Sequence record: PV400810.1
Origin: Pseudomonas phage vB_PaeM_GXNNA8
Reading direction: 5' to 3' (one strand)
Length of the DNA: 64,000 nucleotides
Part shown: in pieces, positions 4,345 through 41,361 of the stretch
Position numbering within the stretch: the stretch's first letter is position 1
Layout: each line of letters starts with the position of its first letter
Notes under the pieces: generated by a model
What the model saw: only the letters and a program-made list of their open reading frames with translations
Told to the model about the DNA's origin: nothing
Databases searched by the model: none
Program-made: the position numbers and the translations under genes

Positions 4345-7279
4345 GCAGGTGGATTTTGCTGCTTTGCGTAAATCGTTGACGACTCAAAACCCAGTGGTTG
4401 CAGCGACCCTGCGTAATGCTACGCCTCGTAACGGTTCATCCCCTGAACGGGATGAGATCAACGGTCATCGGACGGTTAACCCTTACAAACTGGAAAAGCT
4501 GAGTAATATCATCAGCAACAACATTAACGCGGCTACTGATTTGCGGTTAATCACGCCGTATATCGACAAAGCCACCTTGATCTGGCAGACGTGTCTACTC
4601 TACCCCAATGGGAAGCAAGACAAAATCCTCACCTACGACACCCAACCGTCCCCTATTAAAAATGCAAAATTGCATGATGAACTCCTCACCATCTGGGATG
4701 GCTACTATACCAATGACTATAAGATCGAGAAAGATTTGAGGGAAATGATCGCGGATATTCTCTTCAATACCGGGAGTTATGTGCTGTTTAACTTGAGTCG
4801 CCCAGGTCTCGATTATTTGATCAACGGTGCGGAGCAATCCGGGGATGTTGCCGGTAACGAACAGTTCATGACCCAGGCTAAAGAGATGCTAAGTCATGAG
4901 TTCGTAGTCGTCAACGGTAAAGTCCGGGTGAAGAACAAAGGTGTCTTTGTCGGTAATAGAACCAGTCATAATACAAATAACACCGTCAGTGGTCTAGAAT
5001 CCCTTTTCCTGAACCCTTCTTCTCAGGATGCTGGAGTGGAATTCAATATCTTTGAAGACGATAAAGACTCTGTCTCGAAGGAATTGGCTCAGCTGATTGA
5101 TATTACCCTGACCGATAACCCAGCGGTCTTGTACCTCCAGAAGTTCGAGGAAAGTAAACGTCGGTCGAATGTTGCCGCGGTAACGGGAGCGGAAGGGTTG
5201 GACCTTATTATCCAAACCGCTCTGGTGGCTCGTACGAACCCTGGAGATGATCAACAGCACTATACGGATGCAGATGGTAAGAAACGCAAACGTAAGAAGC
5301 CTGCTGATCCTCAAGCCACTACCGTTAACTTAACAGAAGGTGAATTGAATGAGTTGAGTAACCGTTTGTTCCCTCAACGGAATCCGGTGAGTCAGATCAT
5401 TCAATTCAGTAAACCCGTCGATGCCTTGAAGATTGCACCCTATGGACGGGGGATTACCTACAAGGTTCCCAGTGAAGCGGTGATTCCGATTCACATTAAC
5501 GGGAGTAATGGAACTCAAACGGACTTTATCCTCCTCACGGATCCTCGGGATGGGAGTTTCCTGAAGAATACGAATGACTTCGAGTACTACCAGAGTAACC
5601 GAAGCAATGCCAGTATGATTGCTAACCGCCCTAAAAACGGTAGTACGAACAACCTGGTTAAACAGCTTCGTCAGATCCAAGAAGGGAAAGAATGTGATTT
5701 CGATATGACCGAGTTCATTGAGATCTCGAAATCGAATATCATTCGACGGTACATGCAGTCAGTCCTCAGTGGTCGCGGGGAGAATATCAGCATTGAAATC
5801 GATGAGGAAGCCAACAAGATCTTCCTGCAACGCATTTTCCGTAGGCAGGGGATTCGGTGTTTGTATGTGCCTGGGGAAGCGATGACCTATATGGCCCTGA
5901 ACTATAACCGTTTAGGGATTGGTCAGTCGTTGACTCAAATGGCTAAAATGCACATTGCTCGTTTAGCGGCCTTAGACCTCGCTGACGCGTTGGCGAACCT
6001 AGAGGCGGCTACACCCCACACCCAAATGACGATTAACCTCCAGGAGAACGACGCAGAGCCTTTTGCGGGTATTGCGGCGACCAGGGCAGCGTTCTTTGAA
6101 GCTAACCCACGGTTGCACAGTATTCTCTCAACATCTCAACTATCAGTCCCCATGATTGTGGATACCTTGAGGGAGAACTCCTTAACAGTTAAAGTCAACG
6201 CGGGTGAGAACCCTTACTTCCCTGCCTCGGATATTCAGCTCGATCAATTGGAAAAGAACATCTTCCGCCCGGTCGATCAGAATAGTCGTACGGAGCTGTT
6301 GAACAAGATCGCCAACTACTTCCACCTGTCTCGGAGTTGGTTGGATGTCAGTGACGATCAGAACAACTTCCAGATTGAGGCCCTGGCTGAACACCAGATG
6401 CTCCTGAACCAAATCGTTAACTGGCAAGAACGCCTGGCAGACTTCATTATTGACTTCGAACGTAAGCATGCTCACGTGAACGGGCCTTTAATGAAGAAGT
6501 TGGTGACCAAGATCTCGGAGAATAAGAAACTCTGGTCACCGGACAGTAAGGAGAAACTGGAAGGGTCTGACGAAGAGATCATTAAAATGATTCTCGTCGA
6601 CTTCTTGACTAACCTTAAAGCCCACTTCCCCATCCCCAGTTCTGTTGAAACGACCGCTAAACTCAAGGACAGTTTGGATACGGTGAGTCAGCTGGTGGAG
6701 TCGTGGGTTGCCATGGCGGGTCATTCGGGTAACCTGAAACAGATTGCTGAGCTCTTGGGTATTCCGGAATCTGATGACGGAGAAGGGAATAACAAGAACC
6801 TGACGGCGATTAACGAGCAAGTGAAGTCAGTGCTCACGGTTGAAGCCTTCAGGCGCTATAACCTCCCGATGCCATTTGACGACATCCTTAACGATGGTAA
6901 GGGTGGTGGTCTTGCTTCCTTGGTGAACGCCGTTGTGAGTCAGCGTCAGAATGTCGGGGAGTTCCTGGCAGCCCTGATTGCAGGGACTCGTGATGCGGAT
7001 GCTAAGGTCATTAAGGCACACGCCAAGAAGATCGATAAGGCTGATAAAGACCTCCAAGAAGCCAGGGATAAGGCGAATCTCCCTGAAGGGGATCAGAACG
7101 CCTTAGAGAATACCCCTCCCGGGGAAGAGGAAGAACCGGAAGGTATAGAGGAAGAGGAAGGTTCTGAAGCAGGTACTGAAGGAGAGGAGGAAGAAGAAAC
7201 CTCTCCTGAGGGTGAAGAAGGCAATGAGGATGGGACCAATCCTGAAGAGAACAGTCCCGATACCAATCCCTTTGCTTAA
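4307..7279 (+). CDS. large hypothetical protein (~990 aa) with poly-acidic C-terminal tail and a basic KKRKRKK patch
   Basis: Track ORF is 4277..7279. I prefer the ATG at 4307, which follows GAGGTTAAGA (RBS-like). The last ~55 aa are very E/D-rich. Followed by the hairpin at 7298-7340. Confidence 0.6.
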   Translation: MVDTSRRQSKGNTQVDFAALRKSLTTQNPVVAATLRNATPRNGSSPERDEINGHRTVNPYKLEKLSNIISNNINAATDLRLITPYIDKATLIWQTCLLYPNGKQDKILTYDTQPSPIKNAKLHDELLTIWDGYYTNDYKIEKDLREMIADILFNTGSYVLFNLSRPGLDYLINGAEQSGDVAGNEQFMTQAKEMLSHEFVVVNGKVRVKNKGVFVGNRTSHNTNNTVSGLESLFLNPSSQDAGVEFNIFEDDKDSVSKELAQLIDITLTDNPAVLYLQKFEESKRRSNVAAVTGAEGLDLIIQTALVARTNPGDDQQHYTDADGKKRKRKKPADPQATTVNLTEGELNELSNRLFPQRNPVSQIIQFSKPVDALKIAPYGRGITYKVPSEAVIPIHINGSNGTQTDFILLTDPRDGSFLKNTNDFEYYQSNRSNASMIANRPKNGSTNNLVKQLRQIQEGKECDFDMTEFIEISKSNIIRRYMQSVLSGRGENISIEIDEEANKIFLQRIFRRQGIRCLYVPGEAMTYMALNYNRLGIGQSLTQMAKMHIARLAALDLADALANLEAATPHTQMTINLQENDAEPFAGIAATRAAFFEANPRLHSILSTSQLSVPMIVDTLRENSLTVKVNAGENPYFPASDIQLDQLEKNIFRPVDQNSRTELLNKIANYFHLSRSWLDVSDDQNNFQIEALAEHQMLLNQIVNWQERLADFIIDFERKHAHVNGPLMKKLVTKISENKKLWSPDSKEKLEGSDEEIIKMILVDFLTNLKAHFPIPSSVETTAKLKDSLDTVSQLVESWVAMAGHSGNLKQIAELLGIPESDDGEGNNKNLTAINEQVKSVLTVEAFRRYNLPMPFDDILNDGKGGGLASLVNAVVSQRQNVGEFLAALIAGTRDADAKVIKAHAKKIDKADKDLQEARDKANLPEGDQNALENTPPGEEEEPEGIEEEEGSEAGTEGEEEEETSPEGEEGNEDGTNPEENSPDTNPFA

Positions 7280-7297
7280 TCAAAAATAAACGTTATA

Positions 7298-7340
7298 CCC
7301 CCTAACCCCTAGCCCCTTTAACAGGGCTAGGGGTTAGGGG
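7298..7340. terminator. bidirectional intrinsic-terminator-like hairpin (CCCCTAACCCCTAGCCCC / GGGCTAGGGGTTAGGGG) between convergent genes
   Basis: Stem of ~17 bp. T-runs on both sides (tttattcag on plus; ggtataacgtttattttt on minus). Confidence 0.7.
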
Positions 7341-12328: not shown

Positions 12329-12404
12329 TGGTTCCGTGACCAGGGTTCGAACCCGGGACCTACTGTTTACGAAACAGTTGCTCTACCTACTGAGCTATCA
12401 CGGA
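12329..12404 (-). tRNA. tRNA-Thr (anticodon CGU), 76 nt with encoded CCA
   Basis: Reverse complement is TCCGTGATAGCTCAGTAGGTAGAGCAACTGTTTCGTAAACAGTAGGTCCCGGGTTCGAACCCTGGTCACGGAACCA. It has a 7-bp acceptor stem, a GCTC/GAGC D-stem, an ACTGT/ACAGT anticodon stem with loop TTCGTAA, a TTCGAAC T-loop, discriminator A and CCA. Confidence 0.8.
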
Positions 12405-26798: not shown

Positions 26799-26880
26799 GG
26801 ATATAAATCCTGTTCGAGATGAGTAACAAACATGTTTGTTGCGCAATAGAACTGCACATAAAATGTGCGCAGCCTTTTAA

Positions 26881-27426
26881 TCAGGGGTTTTGAAGGTGGA
26901 TCAGCTTGAACACTTCAGCCAGAGTCAATTCCCCTAAACCTGCTTTCGGTACAGGACCGAAATGACTTTCCAAATAACCGACCCTTGCATAAAGTGTTTC
27001 CAATACAGCGGTTGAGATTGTTTTGGCTTGAAGTTTCTCCCAGCTAGCGGTGGCTTTATGTTCCCCTACCTCGACTCCAATGAGAATCACTTGACCATTA
27101 ACCGTCGATCGGAAATGATTGGCGGTACGAAGGAGGGTGGCTATTGCATCACTGTCCACCCCATTAAATGCTTCGGCTACCATCCCCGCATTATACCCAT
27201 GACCAAAGTACGCCGTAGGGTCAGGCATTTCTACACCAAAGACTTTGGCCGCCGCATACTGTAAAGCTACAAAGTTAGCCATTTCACCAAAGGTGATCTT
27301 GTCATGGTATGCAGAAATTTCTTTCAATCCACAGAGCGGGATGGATTGAGCCACCAGGGTGTCAACCAACTCCCCGGTTATCACATACAACTCGAACGGT
27401 AAACCGTTAGGGTATTTAAAAATCAT
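26881..27426 (-). CDS. hypothetical protein (181 aa)
   Basis: ORF divergent from the helicase gene. Confidence 0.5.
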   Translation of the reverse strand: MIFKYPNGLPFELYVITGELVDTLVAQSIPLCGLKEISAYHDKITFGEMANFVALQYAAAKVFGVEMPDPTAYFGHGYNAGMVAEAFNGVDSDAIATLLRTANHFRSTVNGQVILIGVEVGEHKATASWEKLQAKTISTAVLETLYARVGYLESHFGPVPKAGLGELTLAEVFKLIHLQNP

Positions 27427-27451: not shown

Positions 27452-28984
27452 ATGAACGATTTGCTGGTGTTAGTAAAACTGTTATCAGCAATATATCAGG
27501 CCAAAAAACTAAAAGACACGAACCTGATCGAAGAACTGACAGACTTACTGGAAGAACTCCCAGCCCCAAATCCCGATGTGATGTCTCAAGACCGACGTGT
27601 CAGGGACAGCATCCGGTCTTCAATTAGCTGGCTGCTAGACCAGTCTAATGACGATCCACTTATAAAATCGTTGCTGATGCAGCGGGTAGCGATCTTCTGC
27701 AAGAATGATGACAGTCTCAGGGATGCGGTGAATGTTGGGTTGGAAGACCTGGAAACAGAGGAACTGTCTCGTCGTCTGGTGTATAAACAGATCACAGAGA
27801 TTCGTTCCAGTATGGAAGATGAGGTCTTCGAGAAGCAGTTCAAGAAAGCTATGAAAGAAGTCCTGTACAAGGACCTCGTTGATACCAAACCCGAAGACTT
27901 TGCTAAACTGATTGATTTGATCCAAGAGCGGGTGAATAACGCGTATGGGGAACGTCAATCCGAAGTGGTGAGTTCCGTCAATACGGCTACACCGGAAAGT
28001 ATGCTCGATATCATCGAGATGGCGAAGACGGAGAACAGTTCAGAAGGGATCATTAAAACCGGTATTCAAGGTCTTAATCAAGGATTGGAACCGGATGGAG
28101 GCTTACGTCGAAGTAAGATGTACCTCCTAGAAGCCATGACGAACAGAGGTAAGTCTTTCGGTATGGCTCACCTGATTGCCTCAGCAGGGATGTACAACAA
28201 ACCCATGCTGCGGAATAAGGCTAAGATTCCAACGATCCTGTATGAATCGGCTGAGGATGCCATGGAACTGGTGATTCGTCGGATCTACAAGCTGGCAGTA
28301 ACCACCAAGTACAAAGAAGACCGGGACTTTCAGGTGACTGAAAGCATGGACATTGTAACTGCTATTGCGGATTGCTTCCGGAAGAATGGGTGGTACCTGG
28401 TGATTAACCAGATTGAAGCCCATAAAGACAATCGGGACAAGATGTTCGCTCGTGTACGGCAATTGGAACTCAAAGGCCATGAGATCATCCTGTACGGGTA
28501 TGATTACTTGGCGTTGCAGAATTTCGATAAACTCCCTGGGGAGAATAAGTCCGATAAACTTCAATTACTATTCCGTACTGTCCGGTCATTTATGATTGCC
28601 CGGGGTATTTGTTTCTTAACACCTCACCAGTTGAGTCCTGAAGCTAAGAAACTACTAAAAGAACTGGATGATGAGTCTGAGGTCTACTTCGCTCGGGAAG
28701 TCTCTGGTAAGTCAATGACAGAAACGTCTACGAAGATTACCAACGAAGTGGATGGTGTCATTACCATTCATGTGGCGAAGACGTCCATGAAGAATTACTT
28801 TACCTGTTCCATTGGTAAACAACGGGGTGAAGGGTGTTCACCTGAGAAGCGGTTCTTTATTTATGATCTTGATCCCGTGTTAGGGCTTGTACATGACATT
28901 AATGGTAAACCCGCCTTTAGACGGTCTTTGCAACAACGCTTTAATGAGAATGGTGATGTCGTGAAAGATTGGGACGCCATGTAA
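27452..28984 (+). CDS. DnaB-like (SF4, RecA-fold) replicative helicase
   Basis: Walker-A-like AMTNRGKS, Walker-B-like EIILYGYDYL, H4-like motif FLTPHQLSPE (compare DnaB SQLNR). Track ORF is 27359..28984. The ATG at 27452 follows AGGGG. Confidence 0.5.
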   Translation: MNDLLVLVKLLSAIYQAKKLKDTNLIEELTDLLEELPAPNPDVMSQDRRVRDSIRSSISWLLDQSNDDPLIKSLLMQRVAIFCKNDDSLRDAVNVGLEDLETEELSRRLVYKQITEIRSSMEDEVFEKQFKKAMKEVLYKDLVDTKPEDFAKLIDLIQERVNNAYGERQSEVVSSVNTATPESMLDIIEMAKTENSSEGIIKTGIQGLNQGLEPDGGLRRSKMYLLEAMTNRGKSFGMAHLIASAGMYNKPMLRNKAKIPTILYESAEDAMELVIRRIYKLAVTTKYKEDRDFQVTESMDIVTAIADCFRKNGWYLVINQIEAHKDNRDKMFARVRQLELKGHEIILYGYDYLALQNFDKLPGENKSDKLQLLFRTVRSFMIARGICFLTPHQLSPEAKKLLKELDDESEVYFAREVSGKSMTETSTKITNEVDGVITIHVAKTSMKNYFTCSIGKQRGEGCSPEKRFFIYDLDPVLGLVHDINGKPAFRRSLQQRFNENGDVVKDWDAM

Positions 28985-29003
28985 AGACAAAATGAATAAT
29001 AGA

Positions 29004-29040
29004 CCCCCTACCCCCTAGCCTGAGAGCTAGGGGGTAGGGG
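29004..29040. terminator. bidirectional hairpin CCCCCTACCCCCTAGC-ctgaga-GCTAGGGGGTAGGGG between the helicase (+) and ParB-like (-) genes
   Basis: 15-bp stem. Confidence 0.65.
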
Positions 29041-29049
29041 TATGTCACG

Positions 29050-29409
29050 TTACATAACGCGATTACGGTAACCCTTTACTTTAAAGGGGCTTCCTTTACC
29101 TTTAAACCAGTCCGTTGGAATGACCTTAACGTTCAAGGTGGGTTGTCCTTCCCAATGGGCTTTAAGGAACCGGTGCCAGCCATCAATGATCACCCACTCT
29201 CCTTCCCATTCCGTAATCAGCAACGGAAAGGAATAATCCGCTCGCTTAATCCGGTCCTTGTCCTCTTCAACGGCATGCGCCAGGAGCCATTCAAAGTCCT
29301 TTAAGGGAACCGTTTGAACGGGGAGTGTCTCACTTCGACGGAGGAAGTCGTTGAGGTGGTAGACTTTACCGTCATGAACGAACGTAGATCCATATTCCTG
29401 ATACGCCAT
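29050..29409 (-). CDS. ParB/sulfiredoxin-like nuclease-domain protein
   Basis: VIIDGWHRFLKA matches the ParB-N DGxHR core. Confidence 0.4.
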   Translation of the reverse strand: MAYQEYGSTFVHDGKVYHLNDFLRRSETLPVQTVPLKDFEWLLAHAVEEDKDRIKRADYSFPLLITEWEGEWVIIDGWHRFLKAHWEGQPTLNVKVIPTDWFKGKGSPFKVKGYRNRVM

Positions 29410-30116
29410 TAGTCCCCCTTAATGGGTAGATCCATCCGAACAGTTCGAGTCGGTTGGGTGTAGTCTTCCAACAGGCCCATGAGCTGCTCCCGGAGACGAT
29501 CCCAGCTCGGTTGAGTAATCGTTAGGTTATCCAACTTCAGTCGGATATTCCGAACCTCAGGGTCTGCGAAGACTTCCGTCAACGGGAAATACGCATAGTT
29601 CCGTCCTATTTTAAACCGAACCTTGTATTTCTCGTCAAAGAACTTCAAACTGTGATTCAACCGTTCCAGCAAGATACTCGCCACGTGTTCTTCCGGTAGA
29701 GACAGGTAATAATCCCCGTCTTGGGTAAAGACCAACCCTTCCTTATCGTGGAGGGTGACTTTACCGGCTTCTAATACGGCTTCAAACCGCCCGTCCTTGT
29801 TGTCGTGGAACATCAGGGTATGGGTGCTCCGTCCCATCTTCACCACCCGCTTATTGTGCTTATAGCACGCAATCACCACCAACAACGGTAACGTCTGGTA
29901 ATCATACGAACGATCGCTTAGGTATTCCTCCACTTCCCCCTCGCTGGTTTCACGGATAATCACCAGGTGTTCAGCATACACGTCATACAACACCGATTCG
30001 TTATGATCCAGCAACGTGGTAAAAAACCGTTTGGATTCACCGTTAATGAACAGACCGGTGTCATGTGTATGGGTTTTACCCAATAGGTCTTGTTCAAACA
30101 CCACTTGGTAATGCAT
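29409..30116 (-). CDS. hypothetical protein (235 aa)
   Basis: ORF whose stop overlaps the start of the ParB-like gene. Confidence 0.5.
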   Translation of the reverse strand: MHYQVVFEQDLLGKTHTHDTGLFINGESKRFFTTLLDHNESVLYDVYAEHLVIIRETSEGEVEEYLSDRSYDYQTLPLLVVIACYKHNKRVVKMGRSTHTLMFHDNKDGRFEAVLEAGKVTLHDKEGLVFTQDGDYYLSLPEEHVASILLERLNHSLKFFDEKYKVRFKIGRNYAYFPLTEVFADPEVRNIRLKLDNLTITQPSWDRLREQLMGLLEDYTQPTRTVRMDLPIKGD

Positions 30117-30205
30117 AAACCGAATCTCCTAAATGATCCATTGGGTATAATCACGACGGTAATATAGGTTTGATTTCCCCTTTAGCTTAAATGCGGTATA
30201 ACACC

Positions 30206-30232
30206 CCCTACCTAAGCTCAGCTTAGGTAGGG
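30206..30232 (-). terminator. hairpin CCCTACCTAAGC-tca-GCTTAGGTAGGG
   Basis: 12-bp stem between minus-strand genes. Confidence 0.5.
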
Positions 30233-30282
30233 AGGTCAGTAATGGGGTAGTAAGTGGGTATACCAGTAAACATTTACTGTTT

Positions 30283-30723
30283 TCATGTCTCAAAGTCTAC
30301 AGGGGGAGGAGCAGTCAGCAAGCGATCACCCGCATACACCGCCCCGTAATACCCGGGGCCTTCTTGATACAACGGTTCTGTCTTCGTAAAGGCTAAGAAG
30401 ACATCTTCCAATCCGTCAGGGACTTTACACAACGGAGGATCAGTAGGGGGTTTATCTTGAAGTACTCTGTACGCTTCTGTAAGCTTCCAATAGAGCCGAT
30501 TGTCCTTACCCGCCTCTACCGTACTCCTTTCTACCTGATCGCCTCGCCTAAGCGCTGCTAGACGCCTTACCAGCATCACAAACAACGCATCCGCCTTAGC
30601 AAAGGTAATCTTCGCCTCCCTTTCCAATAACCGTATCAATATCCCCGCATTCGTTTGATCCTCTACACTCACGTGTAAGAGATCAAATGTATTCTTAATT
30701 TCATTAACCCCACGATGCGTCAT
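30283..30723 (-). CDS. hypothetical protein (146 aa)
   Basis: ORF. Confidence 0.5.
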   Translation of the reverse strand: MTHRGVNEIKNTFDLLHVSVEDQTNAGILIRLLEREAKITFAKADALFVMLVRRLAALRRGDQVERSTVEAGKDNRLYWKLTEAYRVLQDKPPTDPPLCKVPDGLEDVFLAFTKTEPLYQEGPGYYGAVYAGDRLLTAPPPVDFET

Positions 30724-30965
30724 TGTTTTTCTTTTCCTTTAACCGTGATGCGTTCACCAAGCAGACCGAGCACACGTTCGTCTTTGCCGTCGTCGAGACA
30801 GGGAATGATATCAGGTAGAGGTTCAGTTGCCCGGAGGCGTTTTCGGATGAGTTTGAGCATTACAGGCCCGGGTATCTCGCTCGTCCGCGTAGTGCCGTAC
30901 AAATGGTAACCTGCCAGTAAGTCTGCCAGTTGACGGTTACTGAAATGGTCGAAATCCCCAGTCAT
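30720..30965 (-). CDS. hypothetical small protein (~81 aa)
   Basis: Track ORF is 30720..31004. I prefer the ATG at 30965 (MTGDFDHF), which follows GGAG. It is the first gene downstream of the ori-like region. Confidence 0.4.
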   Translation of the reverse strand: MTGDFDHFSNRQLADLLAGYHLYGTTRTSEIPGPVMLKLIRKRLRATEPLPDIIPCLDDGKDERVLGLLGERITVKGKEKQ

Positions 30966-31004
30966 GGTATTTACTCCGGTAGTGAATCGGTAATGGCAGA
31001 GCAA

Positions 31005-31320
31005 TCTTCTCAGCTCTGCTTGCTGAATGTATTAATCAGAACGTGTTGGAATACTGATTAACCTACGGTTCTCTCTCCTTTTTCCTCATCCCCCTTCCGG
31101 GGGTATAAGGGGGTATTCCCTCTCTTCCCTTTCTCTTCTCTCTCTGTATTCCGTATAGATCAAAAGAAAGATCTAAAGAGAATAGAGAAAGATCAAAAGA
31201 GAGAACAAGGAAGTCGTAGTTACTCCGTAACTACTCCACTCTTTATTAGGAAATAAACCCCTTTCCCCACTGCTTGTCAGCCAGTTTACAATACAATAAA
31301 TACATTAAGTGATAAATTAC
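31005..31320. promoter_or_regulatory. 315-bp non-coding region: polypyrimidine tract (~31066-31146), polypurine tract with 3 GATC in ~40 bp (31147-31212), inverted repeats TAATCAG/CTGATTA and GTAGTTAC/GTAACTAC; candidate origin of replication or regulatory hub
   Basis: The CT-rich run ctctctcctttttcctcatccccc...ctctcttccctttctcttctctctctg is followed by agatcaaaagaaagatctaaagagaatagagaaagatcaaaagagag (a mirror / inverted-complement relationship). A GGGGGTAT direct repeat is present. The region sits next to the helicase/ParB module. Confidence 0.4.
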
Positions 31321-32664
31321 CTAAGGAGCATCAAATACCCTGTCATTCAAGAAGAGGGTTAAAGCAGAATGTTCCCTGAAGATAATATCTGGACTTTCCG
31401 TATCCTTCATGAGTTCAGTACGAGCACCAATCAAAGTACCCTCCTTGTACTTCAAGCGATCATCCCCACTCATAAAGAAGAACCGTACAGGCATACCCGG
31501 TTCTAGTAAGTCCCTGTTCGAGTTATTCCACTGGATCGTTTCCAATGTCCCATCATTGTAAGCATTCACGGATAAGTGCTTACAGAGGTTATTGGTAGGA
31601 GTCGGTTCAAAGGGTATAATCTCCTCCCCACTGCTCCGCTTAGCGGTTTGGTATTCGGAGAGGGAATCAGGACGGGTAGATGCTGACTGACCCTTAGCGT
31701 AGTAGTTGCCCACTTCACCCATGACCGCGTCCGAACTGATCAACCGTTTACCCGTACCCTCATTCTGACGGTCAATGTCAGCCCCATCCACATGTCGACC
31801 TGTACCGGTTGCCAAGATCGTTGTAACCCGGTCTTGGGTAAAGTACGTGGCGTGGAGGGTAGGGACTGCATCAGGGGGTAGTCGATAAATACTCAGTACC
31901 CGTTTACCGTTCTCATACCGACCGATCTTGAAGAGCGGGTAAATCATCCAAAGGCCTTTCTGGTAATACATCCCAAAGCCTTTGGTATAGATCCCAAACT
32001 CCTCATGGGTCTGCATCCACATCCCTAACTGGGGTAAAGGCACCGCAGACGGTATATCGATCAACTTAAAGACCCGAGGGTTATCAATAGGGCGTTCAAT
32101 GTCCACCCCTCTAAAGGCATCCTTACCCGTCAACTGAAGTTGCTTACCGTATTTGGTGAGTTGGTAGTGGAGCGCGTCATCCAAGGTGGTCATTAAGTGT
32201 TTGTCAGACACCATCTCATTCTTCAGCAAAGCGTACCCCAGTTCAATCATCTGGAACTTAACCGTTATCAGGTTAATACTGTCCTTACCTTCCAGGTGAG
32301 CCAAATGGACGCTGTTACCGGCCATCTCAGGGTTCGAGTCACTCAAGGGGATACACCGGAACCGACTCATGGTTTGATGAAGACCTTGGCGTTCGACCAC
32401 TTCAATAAAGAGATTGTCCTTATAGGGCAGGATTCGGTTCAGGTAAACCCCGGGTTGCAAGTTGCCCTGAATACGCCAGTCATCGGAACAGTTCGCTGAA
32501 TACATCGACAACCGAGCCATCCCCGTGGGGATAATCAGTTCAATCTGTTCAACCGGAGTAATGATCGTTGCAAACAGTCGGATCTTCTTATCCGACCGTT
32601 GCGTATTCACCGAGTTTGCTAAGGCGATTAAGTTAGCTAATGGACGTGGTAATTCCATACTCAC
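31321..32664 (-). CDS. hypothetical (structural?) protein (447 aa)
   Basis: First gene of a translationally coupled minus-strand operon (31321..37026). Confidence 0.55.
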   Translation of the reverse strand: MSMELPRPLANLIALANSVNTQRSDKKIRLFATIITPVEQIELIIPTGMARLSMYSANCSDDWRIQGNLQPGVYLNRILPYKDNLFIEVVERQGLHQTMSRFRCIPLSDSNPEMAGNSVHLAHLEGKDSINLITVKFQMIELGYALLKNEMVSDKHLMTTLDDALHYQLTKYGKQLQLTGKDAFRGVDIERPIDNPRVFKLIDIPSAVPLPQLGMWMQTHEEFGIYTKGFGMYYQKGLWMIYPLFKIGRYENGKRVLSIYRLPPDAVPTLHATYFTQDRVTTILATGTGRHVDGADIDRQNEGTGKRLISSDAVMGEVGNYYAKGQSASTRPDSLSEYQTAKRSSGEEIIPFEPTPTNNLCKHLSVNAYNDGTLETIQWNNSNRDLLEPGMPVRFFFMSGDDRLKYKEGTLIGARTELMKDTESPDIIFREHSALTLFLNDRVFDAP

Positions 32665-40104: not shown

Positions 40105-41361
40105 TTACAGGTGAGCCGCAACCAGATCCAGCGATTGCTTGGCTTGGTAAGCCAGCAGACGGTTGACCGACTGGGTCAGGCTCGCACCGGTGCTGTACAG
40201 CGCGCGCACCAGTTTGATCGCCTTGTCAGCATCACCCTTGGCGTCTTTGTCACCACCTTTGGCGTTCAGGGTGCCGACGACACGGTCACGTTCAGCCTTG
40301 GAGAACTTCTGGCTGATCTTGCTGTCTTTCAGAACGAATACAGTAGCGCTCACAGTTTTCAGCAGGCTTTCCAGTTGTGCTTTGGTTGCCTTGACAGCCA
40401 CTTCACCTTTGGCGAACTCGGCAGCGTCCTTGTTCTTGCCGAAGGACAGCTTGACGGAACGCGCGGCAGCCAGGACTTCTTCATCGGTATCGACCTTCTC
40501 TTCGTAGGTCAGGTAGATACCGAAGCCGGCACGTGCAGCCAGGACTTGACGCTTGTCACCGGAACCTTTCTCAGTGGCATTGCCACCGGTTTCTTTCACA
40601 ACGGCTTTGACGTCAGCGACCAGGCTGTTGTACGCAGTCTTGAACTGGGAGGCGTTGACACCGTCGAGGTTCTTGCCGATGTCGATGAAGGCCGGCAGGG
40701 ATTCGCTCAGGACTTTGGTAAACGGACCTTTGTCCAGGATGTCCGCGCCGTTCTTGGCATAGTCGACACCGATGTTCCATTTGCCCAGCTTGACTTTCTC
40801 TTTCAGCTTGTCGGCTTTACCGAGTTTGTCGGCGAGCTGAGCACGACGACGGTCGATACCGGCAGCGGTGCTGAACAGACCCACGAAGAAGTTGATGACG
40901 GTGTTGAAGATCGCCTTGATGAACTCGGCGGCTTTCTTACCGGCATTCTTCACGGTGTCCATGAAGGCTTCAACGCCGGTCACCGAAGCGATCTTGGCGG
41001 TGGCAGCGTCGGAGATGGATTCCGCACCCAGGCGTTCGAAGGATTGGCCGCCCAGCTTGGCGTTCAGACGCAGGGCCTTGTTGTAGCTGTGAGCGAAACC
41101 AACGGAGCTGAACTGACCCGAGCTCAGCATGCTTTCCAGGCCTTCGACTTCTTCAGCCAGTTCTTCGACGACTTCTTCGTGCTCTTCCAGGTCATCACGC
41201 AGTTCTTCGACTTCAGCCGCGACCTGTTCTACCTCTGCCACAACCTCGGCGATGTCAGCACGCACTTCTTCGACAGCGGCTTCGGTCACACCATCTTCGA
41301 GGTTGTCCGCGCCGTTCTCCAGAAGCTCTTCCATGCCAGTGTAGCGATCGAGAATACTCAT
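40105..41361 (-). CDS. head/internal-protein-family paralog with ~110-aa poly-acidic coiled-coil propeptide (GVE|AFMDTVKNAGKKAAEFIKAIF); compositionally GC-rich, probably very highly expressed (scaffold/internal core-like)
   Basis: Track ORF is 40105..41469. The ATG at 41361 follows AAGGAAA. The N-terminus is E-rich (EVEELRDDLEEHEEVVEELAEEVEG). The gene is visibly more GC-rich than its neighbours and is followed by the 32-nt palindrome at 40042-40073. Confidence 0.55.
   Translation of the reverse strand: MSILDRYTGMEELLENGADNLEDGVTEAAVEEVRADIAEVVAEVEQVAAEVEELRDDLEEHEEVVEELAEEVEGLESMLSSGQFSSVGFAHSYNKALRLNAKLGGQSFERLGAESISDAATAKIASVTGVEAFMDTVKNAGKKAAEFIKAIFNTVINFFVGLFSTAAGIDRRRAQLADKLGKADKLKEKVKLGKWNIGVDYAKNGADILDKGPFTKVLSESLPAFIDIGKNLDGVNASQFKTAYNSLVADVKAVVKETGGNATEKGSGDKRQVLAARAGFGIYLTYEEKVDTDEEVLAAARSVKLSFGKNKDAAEFAKGEVAVKATKAQLESLLKTVSATVFVLKDSKISQKFSKAERDRVVGTLNAKGGDKDAKGDADKAIKLVRALYSTGASLTQSVNRLLAYQAKQSLDLVAAHL

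Follow-up and report, generated by a model that had tools for sequence, protein, structure and literature searches.

In phage T7, the early and late mRNAs contain intercistronic hairpins, for example R1.1, that are processed by RNase III. Replication origins composed of iterons and an AT-rich stretch are exemplified by lambda ori, P1 oriR and oriC with its GATC clusters, and in nucleus-forming phages transcription and translation are physically apart. The intrinsic terminators of phiKZ-like phages consist of a GC-rich hairpin followed by TTAT, and in phiKZ short RNAs derived from 5' untranslated regions (5'-UTRs) are produced by conditional termination (PMC10914365). Here, we analysed a gene-free spacer of 355 nt (positions 30966-31320, sense strand minus) of Pseudomonas phage vB_PaeM_GXNNA8, located in a stretch of 64,000 nt of the sequence record PV400810.1 that was studied as a whole and is called the window below. 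An earlier interpretation made from the letters alone, the sequence-only reading, had proposed there an origin of replication, within a module containing a DnaB-like helicase and a ParB-like protein, or else a major regulatory element. We favour, with moderate confidence, another description: the spacer would be a transcribed and folded boundary on the minus strand, between the gp66-gp71 virion block and a hypervariable island (gp72-gp75) that ends at the convergent helicase gene.

Over the 5.4 kb surrounding the locus, the identity to Pseudomonas phage EL and to seven close relatives is 96.8-97.6%. EL is a phiKZ-like phage of ~211 kb, for which RefSeq annotates, among others, a nuclear shell protein and the tubulin PhuZ, and the window is antiparallel to the EL record. 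The gene-free region noticed previously is real but measures 355 nt, from the gp71 stop to the gp72 start, and not 315 nt, because the start codon of gp72 is not an upstream TTG but the ATG at 30965, which has a GGAG ribosome-binding site before it (~30974-30977) and agrees with the EL annotation. Since both flanking genes, gp71 and gp72, are on the minus strand, this strand is the sense strand of the spacer. Gaps of this length are as rare as had been supposed, the spacer ranking 9th by length among the 173 gaps of EL. In phage records, BLAST with the spacer as query recovered the eight EL-like records alone (94-98% identity), while protein and exact-DNA searches of IMG/VR returned EL itself only, and a search of EL for a second copy, using 14-mers with 2 mismatches allowed, gave only noise. 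No Rfam family was found for the spacer, the best matches being at chance level (SNORD97, 28 bits against 45, and mir-2574); none of the 12 relatives described below had a match at the gathering threshold, and the relative L023 had none in an E-value scan. Small open reading frames (ORFs) in the spacer (33 aa in MIZ-Pa99, 38 aa on the plus strand in other genomes) were rejected, because indels of 7-10 nt break their frames and a blastx comparison of the spacer with the island proteins of the relatives gave chance-level matches only.

The nucleotide diversity (pi) of the spacer is 0.0157, compared to 0.072 at 2111 four-fold sites of fourteen neighbouring genes in five EL-like genomes. As this is 4.6-fold under the synonymous level, the spacer is probably functional at some level. 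The 83 nt next to the gp71 stop (31238-31320) form its least variable quarter, with a pi of 0.007; pi is 0.015-0.022 inside the pyrimidine and purine tracts and 0.019 in the gp72-proximal 96 nt. Among seven EL-like genomes, the (GA)n indels of 7-10 nt are not multiples of three and fall within an internal loop. The substitutions, placed on the consensus fold of the seven genomes, are either unpaired or one-sided changes that keep the pair, with one exception, in a long-range helix. The fallback proposal of the sequence-only reading, a major regulatory element, fits a spacer that is constrained and of which a part is conserved in distant relatives.

This conserved part, the first ~120 nt after the gp71 stop, is an ancestral non-coding module common to an uncultured EL-like clade. 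We fetched for comparison twelve loci of uncultured relatives (from the set L019-L030), and in all of them a gap of 130-280 nt lies 3' of the gp71 homolog. The module, delimited by the alignment of 12 loci, occupies 31202-31320 (minus strand), directly 3' of the gp71 stop, and contains an invariant TAT box, a G-rich block GGGGAAAGGGG (31259-31269), the element TTTATT-TCCT-AATAAA (31242-31257), a hairpin called H1 and a tail CTTCCTTGTTCT. Collinear elements were found in most of the relatives' gaps: TAT, invariant in the 12 loci, ~35-45 nt past the stop, the G-rich block, TTATTTT, an AU hairpin, a hairpin at the H1 position and the tail CTTCCTTGTTCT or a variant of it. The G-rich block reads TGGGGA(A/T)AGGGG in one subgroup and consists in the other of a GAAA-loop hairpin and then GGG..GGG. 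An nhmmer profile built from the non-coding DNA of five uncultured relatives gave a single significant match in the window, at 31202-31271 (minus strand, E 4.2e-4); in EL, the same profile matched the syntenic site (E 2e-3) and nothing else, and the motifs of the module have no other occurrence in EL intergenic DNA. A search for homologous regions in related phages, by which the sequence-only reading had proposed to judge the locus, recovered in the distant relatives the ~120-nt module but neither the repeats nor the purine tract.

Hairpin H1, GTAGTTAC-GGA-GTAACTAC in the sense orientation (31216-31234, minus strand), has a positional homolog in all the relatives. Because MAFFT/RNAalifold misaligned the variable stems of the module, the hairpins were tabulated by hand. 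A fully paired stem of 6-16 bp is present at this position in 13 loci, with a basal stem identity of 34% between loci; three of the stems have G.U pairs on the sense strand and none has A.C. In these 13 loci H1 thus combines two marks of an intrinsic terminator, namely a pairing that is kept while the sequence changes and a position at the 3' end of an operon. The H1 of the window itself is AU-rich, with 8 bp, -6.8 kcal/mol and a tail GACTTCCTTGTTCTCTC of 47% T, and was not called by a terminator scan; the hairpins of the relatives L019 and L026 are canonical-like (-20 kcal/mol, tail of 59% T). A long-range pairing of the G-rich block with the pyrimidine tail was seen in single folds and rejected, as it showed no covariation and its cognate and non-cognate duplex energies were equal (p 0.39). 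We observed also that the 3' half of H1 with its loop (CGGAGTAACTAC, 31215-31227) repeats the gp72 ribosome-binding region (30966-30978), exactly in EL and phiRU and with one mismatch in the window, which may be due to chance or be the trace of a duplication.

Downstream of H1 in the sense orientation lie the two tracts that had attracted attention to this region. The pyrimidine tract (31157-31213, minus strand), 5' arm of a long hairpin, is a degenerate 12-nt tandem array and carries all three GATC sites of the spacer; the purine tract ACAGAGAGAGAAGAGAAAGGGAAGAGAGGGAA (31117-31148, minus strand), its 3' arm, shows (GA)n length polymorphism. What had been described as a polypyrimidine run of ~80 nt is actually made of two blocks of ~30 and 39 nt, with a CCCCC-TTCC-GGGGG hairpin and G5 runs between them, and the polypurine run, given as ~65 nt, has 57 nt, of which ~82% are purines. 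Only three 40-nt segments of the 64 kb reach at least 88% purine or pyrimidine; one belongs to the pyrimidine block (31113-31156), the other two lying inside coding ORFs. Tandem Repeats Finder (TRF) detected at 31157-31208 a repeat of period 12 with 4.6 copies and 69% matches, the units being in sense CTTCCTTGTTCT / CTCTTTTGATCT / TTCTCTATT / CTCTTTAGATCT / TTCTTTTGATCT. Because units 1 and 2 correspond to the single-copy tail CTTCCTTCTATG-CTTTTGATCT of L019 and L026, the polypyrimidine tract and the GATC cluster are an amplification of the module's tail that is specific to the EL lineage. Nothing in the relatives corresponds to the purine tract, the C5/G5 hairpin, the TTAATCAG palindrome or the GCAGAGC hairpin.

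The free energy of the core hairpin was -38.5 kcal/mol, compared to -27.0 ± 3.7 kcal/mol in shuffles preserving the composition of each tract, of which 3 in 500 were as good; the purine tract is specifically complementary to the pyrimidine array. The partial complementarity and the long hairpin of the sequence-only reading are therefore upheld above chance at the RNA level, but not at the DNA level, where the structure is weak and ~5 of the 26 pairs of the long stem, being G.U, are mismatches. The array and the purine tract are predicted to form an imperfect RNA duplex of ~35 bp, longer than the at least ~20 bp required for RNase III. The whole spacer folded as sense RNA reached -118.5 kcal/mol (z -5.1), and in a GC-adjusted scan of the EL genome its 120-nt window ranked 13 of 7004 in sense and 2248 in antisense.

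Between the purine tract and gp72, a short GC hairpin CCCCC-GGAA-GGGGG in sense (31090-31103, minus strand) has a loop of variable length in close relatives, EL and phiRU having a 5-A insertion in it. It is followed by an EL-lineage-specific proximal leader (30996-31061, minus strand), composed of a palindrome TTAATCAG-N14-CTGATTAA with perfect 8-bp arms (31032-31061, minus strand) and of a GCAGAGC-N10-GCTCTGC hairpin (30996-31019), both upstream of the GGAG ribosome-binding site. The stems of these two hairpins are invariant in the seven EL-like genomes, the lone change, G/T, being in a loop. Both inverted repeats listed by the sequence-only reading, TTAATCAG/CTGATTAA (31032-39/31054-61) and GTAGTTAC/GTAACTAC (31216-23/31227-34), are exact, and its direct repeat GGGGGTAT does occur in two copies.

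Transcription signals were then mapped around the spacer. Three promoter-like classes were defined in EL from words enriched upstream: the RefSeq-annotated ATTTTAAACCTACATTATY, TTAA-N19-CTATATTAC-N4-GTG and the late-type TTTTATG. None of the three is present in the spacer, where the best position weight matrix (PWM) scores were 0.9, -6.7 and 7.3 compared to at least 24 for true sites, and a sigma-70 scan gave fewer matches than shuffled sequences; we know of no use of the host polymerase by phiKZ-like phages. No canonical GC-rich terminator was found in the spacer either, whereas such terminators do follow gp73 and gp75. The one after gp73, CCCTACCTAAGC-TGAG-CTTAGGTAGGG followed by GGTGTTATACC (30196-30232, minus strand), has the form of other EL and phiKZ terminators, and the other (29005-29040), a strong GC-rich hairpin with a 16-bp stem, 11 GC pairs and then GTCTATTATT, is common to the helicase gene on the plus strand and to gp74-75 on the minus strand. 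An exact copy of the promoter-like core CTATATTAC is located at 30159-30167 (minus strand), 40 nt upstream of the gp74 start codon; the TTAA-N19-CTATATTAC-N4-GTG motif is over-represented between the genes of EL, where it has 6 copies, and is found also after terminators in the Vibrio phage VP4B and in the relatives L022 and L029. From these signals, the minus-strand units would succeed each other as gp66-71, spacer, gp72-73, terminator, promoter, gp74-75 and terminator. In the form TTAA-N18/19-(A/G)N-CTATATTAC-N4-GTG, the motif lies at EL positions 41006, 84865, 149106, 164550, 165839 and 206530, and also in L005, L022 and L029; it is unannotated in the EL record, which marks the ATTTTAAACCTACATTATY class only.

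In the reading that we favour, the weak AU-rich H1 and its U/C tail would act on part of the late transcripts, as a leaky terminator, an attenuator or a 3'-end stabiliser of the structural operon. The remaining transcription would read through into gp72-73, devoid of a recognisable promoter of their own, up to the canonical terminator, after which gp74-75 would depend on their separate promoter. Once transcribed by read-through, the pyrimidine array would pair with the purine tract as the ~35-bp imperfect duplex, used most likely as an RNase III-type processing or stability site, or for uncoupling the expression of the accessory genes from that of the structural genes, and the two hairpins with invariant stems near the ribosome-binding site could tune gp72 translation or bind a regulator. 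Several observations weigh against this reading. Read-through, 3' ends and processing in EL are all inferred, and no double compensatory change was found in the long hairpin among the seven EL-like genomes. The strand asymmetry of folding had to be discarded as RNA-level evidence: 133 of 500 shuffles were as asymmetric, and because composition alone predicts the excess of sense-strand stability we did not count it. The window H1, weak and with a tail of 47% T, may cause no termination at all. The ~70 nt 5' of H1, with the TAT box and the G-rich block, are conserved in sequence beyond the needs of an ordinary terminator, and because L022 and L029 carry a separate canonical terminator, with a promoter, after the module, the latter does more than simple termination. 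Finally, 32 of the 149 transcription start sites of phiKZ have no recognisable motif (PMC10914365), and by analogy an unrecognised promoter may be present inside the spacer.

A more specific proposal, which is possible and which we make only tentatively, is that the ~120-nt module is a structured RNA, not described before, of the EL-like phages that form a nucleus, either a small RNA or an element controlling mRNA fate (3'-end protection, export or attenuation), at the border of the late operon and the island; in EL, the tail amplification and the purine tract would have elaborated it into a duplex that switches or processes the read-through transcript. That the module is an independent small RNA gene, with the TAT box 35-45 nt past the gp71 stop as a late-type (TATG-like) promoter and H1 with its U/C tail as the terminator of a product of ~80 nt containing the G-rich block, seems unlikely to us. 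This would agree with the presence of TAT in the 12 loci, mostly preceded by T-rich sequence as EL late genes carry TTTTATG, with a conservation upstream of the hairpin unlike that of ordinary terminators, with the separate terminator after the module in L022 and L029 and with the uniqueness of the module in the genome, but the box of the window is TATT and the late-promoter PWM gives no score there. In phiKZ, two kinds of small and abundant RNA, of 71 and 141 nt, have been shown to come from intergenic DNA and to end at a terminator that precedes a gene (PMC10914365); for the EL module, however, there is no Rfam match, the helix between the G-rich block and the tail is devoid of covariation (p 0.39) and the hairpin of the EL lineage is weak. 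A site acting as DNA is quite unlikely: gp72-73 would have an unrecognised promoter, with the palindrome TTAATCAG-N14-CTGATTAA as operator of a dimeric DNA-binding protein and the pyrimidine/purine tracts incidental. The perfect 8-bp arms, invariant in 7 genomes and ~70-95 nt upstream of the gp72 ATG, the constraint on the proximal 96 nt (pi 0.019) and the lack of another recognisable promoter for gp72-73 would suit an operator; however, the palindrome is single, a second copy being absent from EL, its folding as an RNA hairpin is just as good, Pfam and PHROG revealed no DNA-binding domain in the proteins encoded nearby, and nothing comparable is found in the relatives because the proximal part is lineage-specific. 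We consider very unlikely that the spacer is non-functional low-complexity DNA, that is, a recombination scar of island turnover with a microsatellite-like expansion, possibly able to form H-DNA or a cruciform and kept by chance. Its position at the edge of the hypervariable island, the (GA)n and loop-length polymorphism and its origin partly by tandem repetition are consistent with such a scar, but its diversity is 4.6-fold under the synonymous level and low inside the tracts too (0.015-0.022), and the complementarity of the arms exceeds that of composition-matched shuffles. Nor is the DNA structure expected by the sequence-only reading apparent: the best mirror repeat has 8-nt arms only, equalled in 15 of 300 within-tract shuffles, when H-DNA requires homopurine.homopyrimidine mirror arms of ~10 nt or more, and the cruciform potential is weak, with DNA folds of -30.4 and -27.4 kcal/mol whose centroids contain short hairpins only.

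An origin of replication, in which the 12-nt repeats would be iterons, the AT-rich 40 nt next to gp71 an unwinding element and the GATC sites marks, and onto which the nearby DnaB-like helicase would be loaded, is in our opinion the most improbable of these explanations. It would account for the degenerate direct repeats AGATCWAAAGA, present three times, for the AT-rich stretch at 31280-31320 and for the constraint on the spacer, and no competing site is known, replication origins being undiscussed in a review of nucleus-forming phages. However, the replication module with an ori-like region was not borne out in any of the origin tests run. The three GATC sites (31158, 31170 and 31191) are indeed present but at chance-level density and without conservation: from the 369 GATC sites of the window, a Poisson estimate predicts ~6.7 triplets within 33 nt per window, and three other triplets within 35 nt were seen. 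The third site is GATT in 4 of the 7 EL-like genomes, ~97% identical overall, and two of the three sites are absent in relatives with 58-72% gp71 identity that share this helicase synteny. These relatives and, more widely, uncultured relatives with 51-72% gp71 identity lack both the repeat array and the purine tract, the hairpin module alone being common. The GATC-bearing repeat copies are 12 and 21 nt apart, which gives no helical phasing, and the units are 69% alike; to our knowledge P. aeruginosa has no Dam methylase, which was also counted against an origin. The cumulative GC skew, proposed as a check, follows gene orientation and shows no extremum at the locus, either in the window (31 kb) or in the EL genome (84 kb), which was put together from five fetched pieces: the skew is negative on either side of the spacer in the window, and in EL the cumulative curve climbs steadily past 84 kb, this test being a weak one for phages. 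No initiator-like gene is adjacent, as no replication-initiator match was found in gp70-gp75 with Pfam and PHROG, and the EL polymerases, second helicase, ligase, RNase H and 'putative replication protein' are spread over the genome, the last one, gp25, being ~54 kb from the spacer.

The transcribed boundary that we favour has to be placed in its genomic neighbourhood. The gp71 homolog (31321-32664, minus strand, phrog_3245), last gene of the conserved gp66-71 block, codes for a conserved virion-associated protein of phiKZ-like jumbo phages; tblastn recovered 276 phage records, many of them annotated as virion structural protein. A metagenome scan combined with a protein search found gp71 in 74 uncultured clusters (36-99% identity), many on contigs of 210-240 kb. 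The order gp66-71, a gap of 50-280 nt, 0-9 unrelated small genes, the convergent helicase, gp77 and the major capsid protein (MCP) gene is common to 11 of the 12 uncultured relatives, the Klebsiella phage Miami and the Aeromonas phage AhC3_1; in AhC3_1, gp71 and the helicase are separated by a bidirectional terminator alone. The exceptions are VP4B, with a long gene run after gp71, and contig L019, which ends just past gp71. Because the placement of the helicase is kept across the relatives, the gp71-helicase neighbourhood is a conserved core synteny with a variable insert, and the proximity of the helicase reflects this synteny and not a local replication module. The interval from gp71 to the helicase (L003-L005 and L020-L030), with 0-9 mostly unrelated small genes, is a hot spot of accessory-gene turnover. 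The uncultured EL-like jumbo clade is sizeable (gp71 44-72% identical, contigs of 210-240 kb), and among the phage records searched the gp71 matches are at least 95% identical in the EL group and then under 60%, the best sampled non-EL record being at ~37%.

Within the island, gp72 (30720-30965, minus strand), a small accessory gene found only in the EL lineage, overlaps by 4 nt the small accessory gene gp73 (30283-30723, minus strand), restricted to this lineage in its present form; neither matched a family in Pfam or PHROG. For gp73, a partial similarity to island genes was found in L020 and L023, while no counterpart of gp72 or gp75 was found in the relatives' loci (L003-L005, L020-L030). 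The gp74 homolog (29409-30116, minus strand, from the ORF list) is intact with 235 aa, has no Pfam or PHROG match and has itself a homolog in the island of L022. Intact gp74 of 235 aa is present in the window, MIZ-Pa99 and HHBS8_1, the EL RefSeq record having only a 143-aa ORF and a 444-bp 'gap', which is probably a frameshift or an annotation gap.

The helicase gene, gp76 homolog (27452-28984, plus strand), is convergent to the minus-strand genes. Its ORF matched PF20307, 'divergent DnaB-like ATPase', over residues 148-502 (E 2.9e-107) and phrog_3213 (E 1.6e-169), and the translation contains the Walker A motif AMTNRGKS and FLTPHQLSPE. Judged by these profiles and by the GKS of the Walker A motif, it is a divergent DnaB-like replicative helicase, as the sequence-only reading had recognised. 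The gp75 homolog (29050-29409, minus strand, from the ORF list) codes for a protein of 119 aa containing IIDGWHRF, which had been called ParB-like. It had no Pfam match, the ParB_N threshold not being reached, and a word-indexed homolog search returned its own cluster only. An exhaustive HMMER search gave a family of 505 representatives (E<=1e-3), and a profile of 40 homologs matched the SbnI N-domain (E 9e-7), ParB (0.1) and sulfiredoxin (0.15), all aligned across the DGWHR motif, of which D76, G77, H79 and R80 are invariant in the 40 homologs; only one of these 40 touched PF02195 (E 0.0034). The ParB/Srx fold superfamily is thus supported by profile, but not the assignment as a partition ParB: no helix-turn-helix (HTH) or dimerisation domain was found, and 119 aa leave no room for an HTH and a C-terminal dimerisation domain, so that the protein has a ParB/Srx fold without being a partition ParB. 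A single-sequence AlphaFold2 (AF2) model, with a pLDDT of 63, was too poor for use in the fold assignment. The ParB/Srx domain family (homologs P0076-P0225) occurs as standalone proteins of ~115 aa or fused in proteins of up to 1670 aa, and in the phages RP12 and vB_Pa-PAC2 the family match falls under genes annotated RNA polymerase beta'.

Other features of the window were noted. The MCP late promoter and 5' leader, TATTTTATG-TGCAGTTCTATTGCGCAA (~26800-26893, minus strand), are almost invariant across relatives whose gp71 is only ~50-70% identical, which suggests a strongly constrained leader RNA on the capsid message; because this promoter and leader are almost invariant across the clade, strongly conserved leaders are a feature of these phages. 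The only gene found with ARAGORN was a tRNA-Thr with anticodon CGU at 12329-12404 (minus strand), distant from the spacer. The strongest purine run of the window (7121-7250, plus strand) codes for the Glu-rich acidic C-terminal tail of a 1000-aa ORF, after which a canonical hairpin terminator is located at ~7296-7338.

Taken together, the spacer is best classed as a conserved RNA element of an operon boundary that has been elaborated in one lineage. A false origin candidate is thereby removed for a phage group whose origins seem undescribed so far, and the locus illustrates that an 'ori-like' appearance, with repeats, GATC sites and purine/pyrimidine tracts, can come from the tandem amplification of a short tail beside a hairpin. 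For a sizeable uncultured clade of EL-like phages, a conserved and genome-unique non-coding element is defined whose place at an operon boundary is fixed; the transcription units around it and three EL promoter-like motif classes are mapped, and the gp71-helicase interval is flagged as a turnover hot spot. If the module is a functional RNA, it would be one of the few known cis-acting RNA elements in nucleus-forming phages. The significance is moderate unless an unusual mechanism is shown.

Compared with the iteron origins, the spacer also has short direct repeats next to an AT-rich stretch, GATC sites and a replicative helicase gene nearby; unlike them, it has no adjacent initiator gene, its repeats are unphased, 69% alike and lineage-specific, its GATC sites are neither significant nor conserved and there is no skew signal. 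With the phiKZ 5'-UTR-derived RNAs it shares a structured non-coding stretch upstream of a gene, with a hairpin end and, as proposed here, either a short RNA or read-through, but there is no homology with them, and the start site and termination are in our case predictions. There is also a likeness to phiKZ-like terminators: H1 and its homologs are at the 3' end of an operon, their pairing is kept while the stem sequence changes and the tail is U/C-rich, and canonical terminators of this class are found farther along the sense strand, at distances of 800 nt (30196-30232) and 2 kb (29005-29040). Unlike those terminators, the window H1 is AU-rich with a tail of 47% T, the ~70 nt upstream of it are conserved and two relatives have a separate canonical terminator. 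As at the T7 RNase III sites, a long imperfect RNA duplex with internal loops would lie between co-transcribed phage genes, although the duplex of the spacer is predicted, is formed by a pyrimidine tandem array and a purine tract instead of a mixed-sequence hairpin, has no sequence relationship with those of T7 and, in a nucleus-forming phage, would meet the host enzyme only after export of the RNA. The T7 hairpins leave a 3'-end hairpin on the upstream message and separate the fates of the flanking cistrons, and we propose that the spacer acts likewise between the gp66-gp71 virion block and gp72-73.

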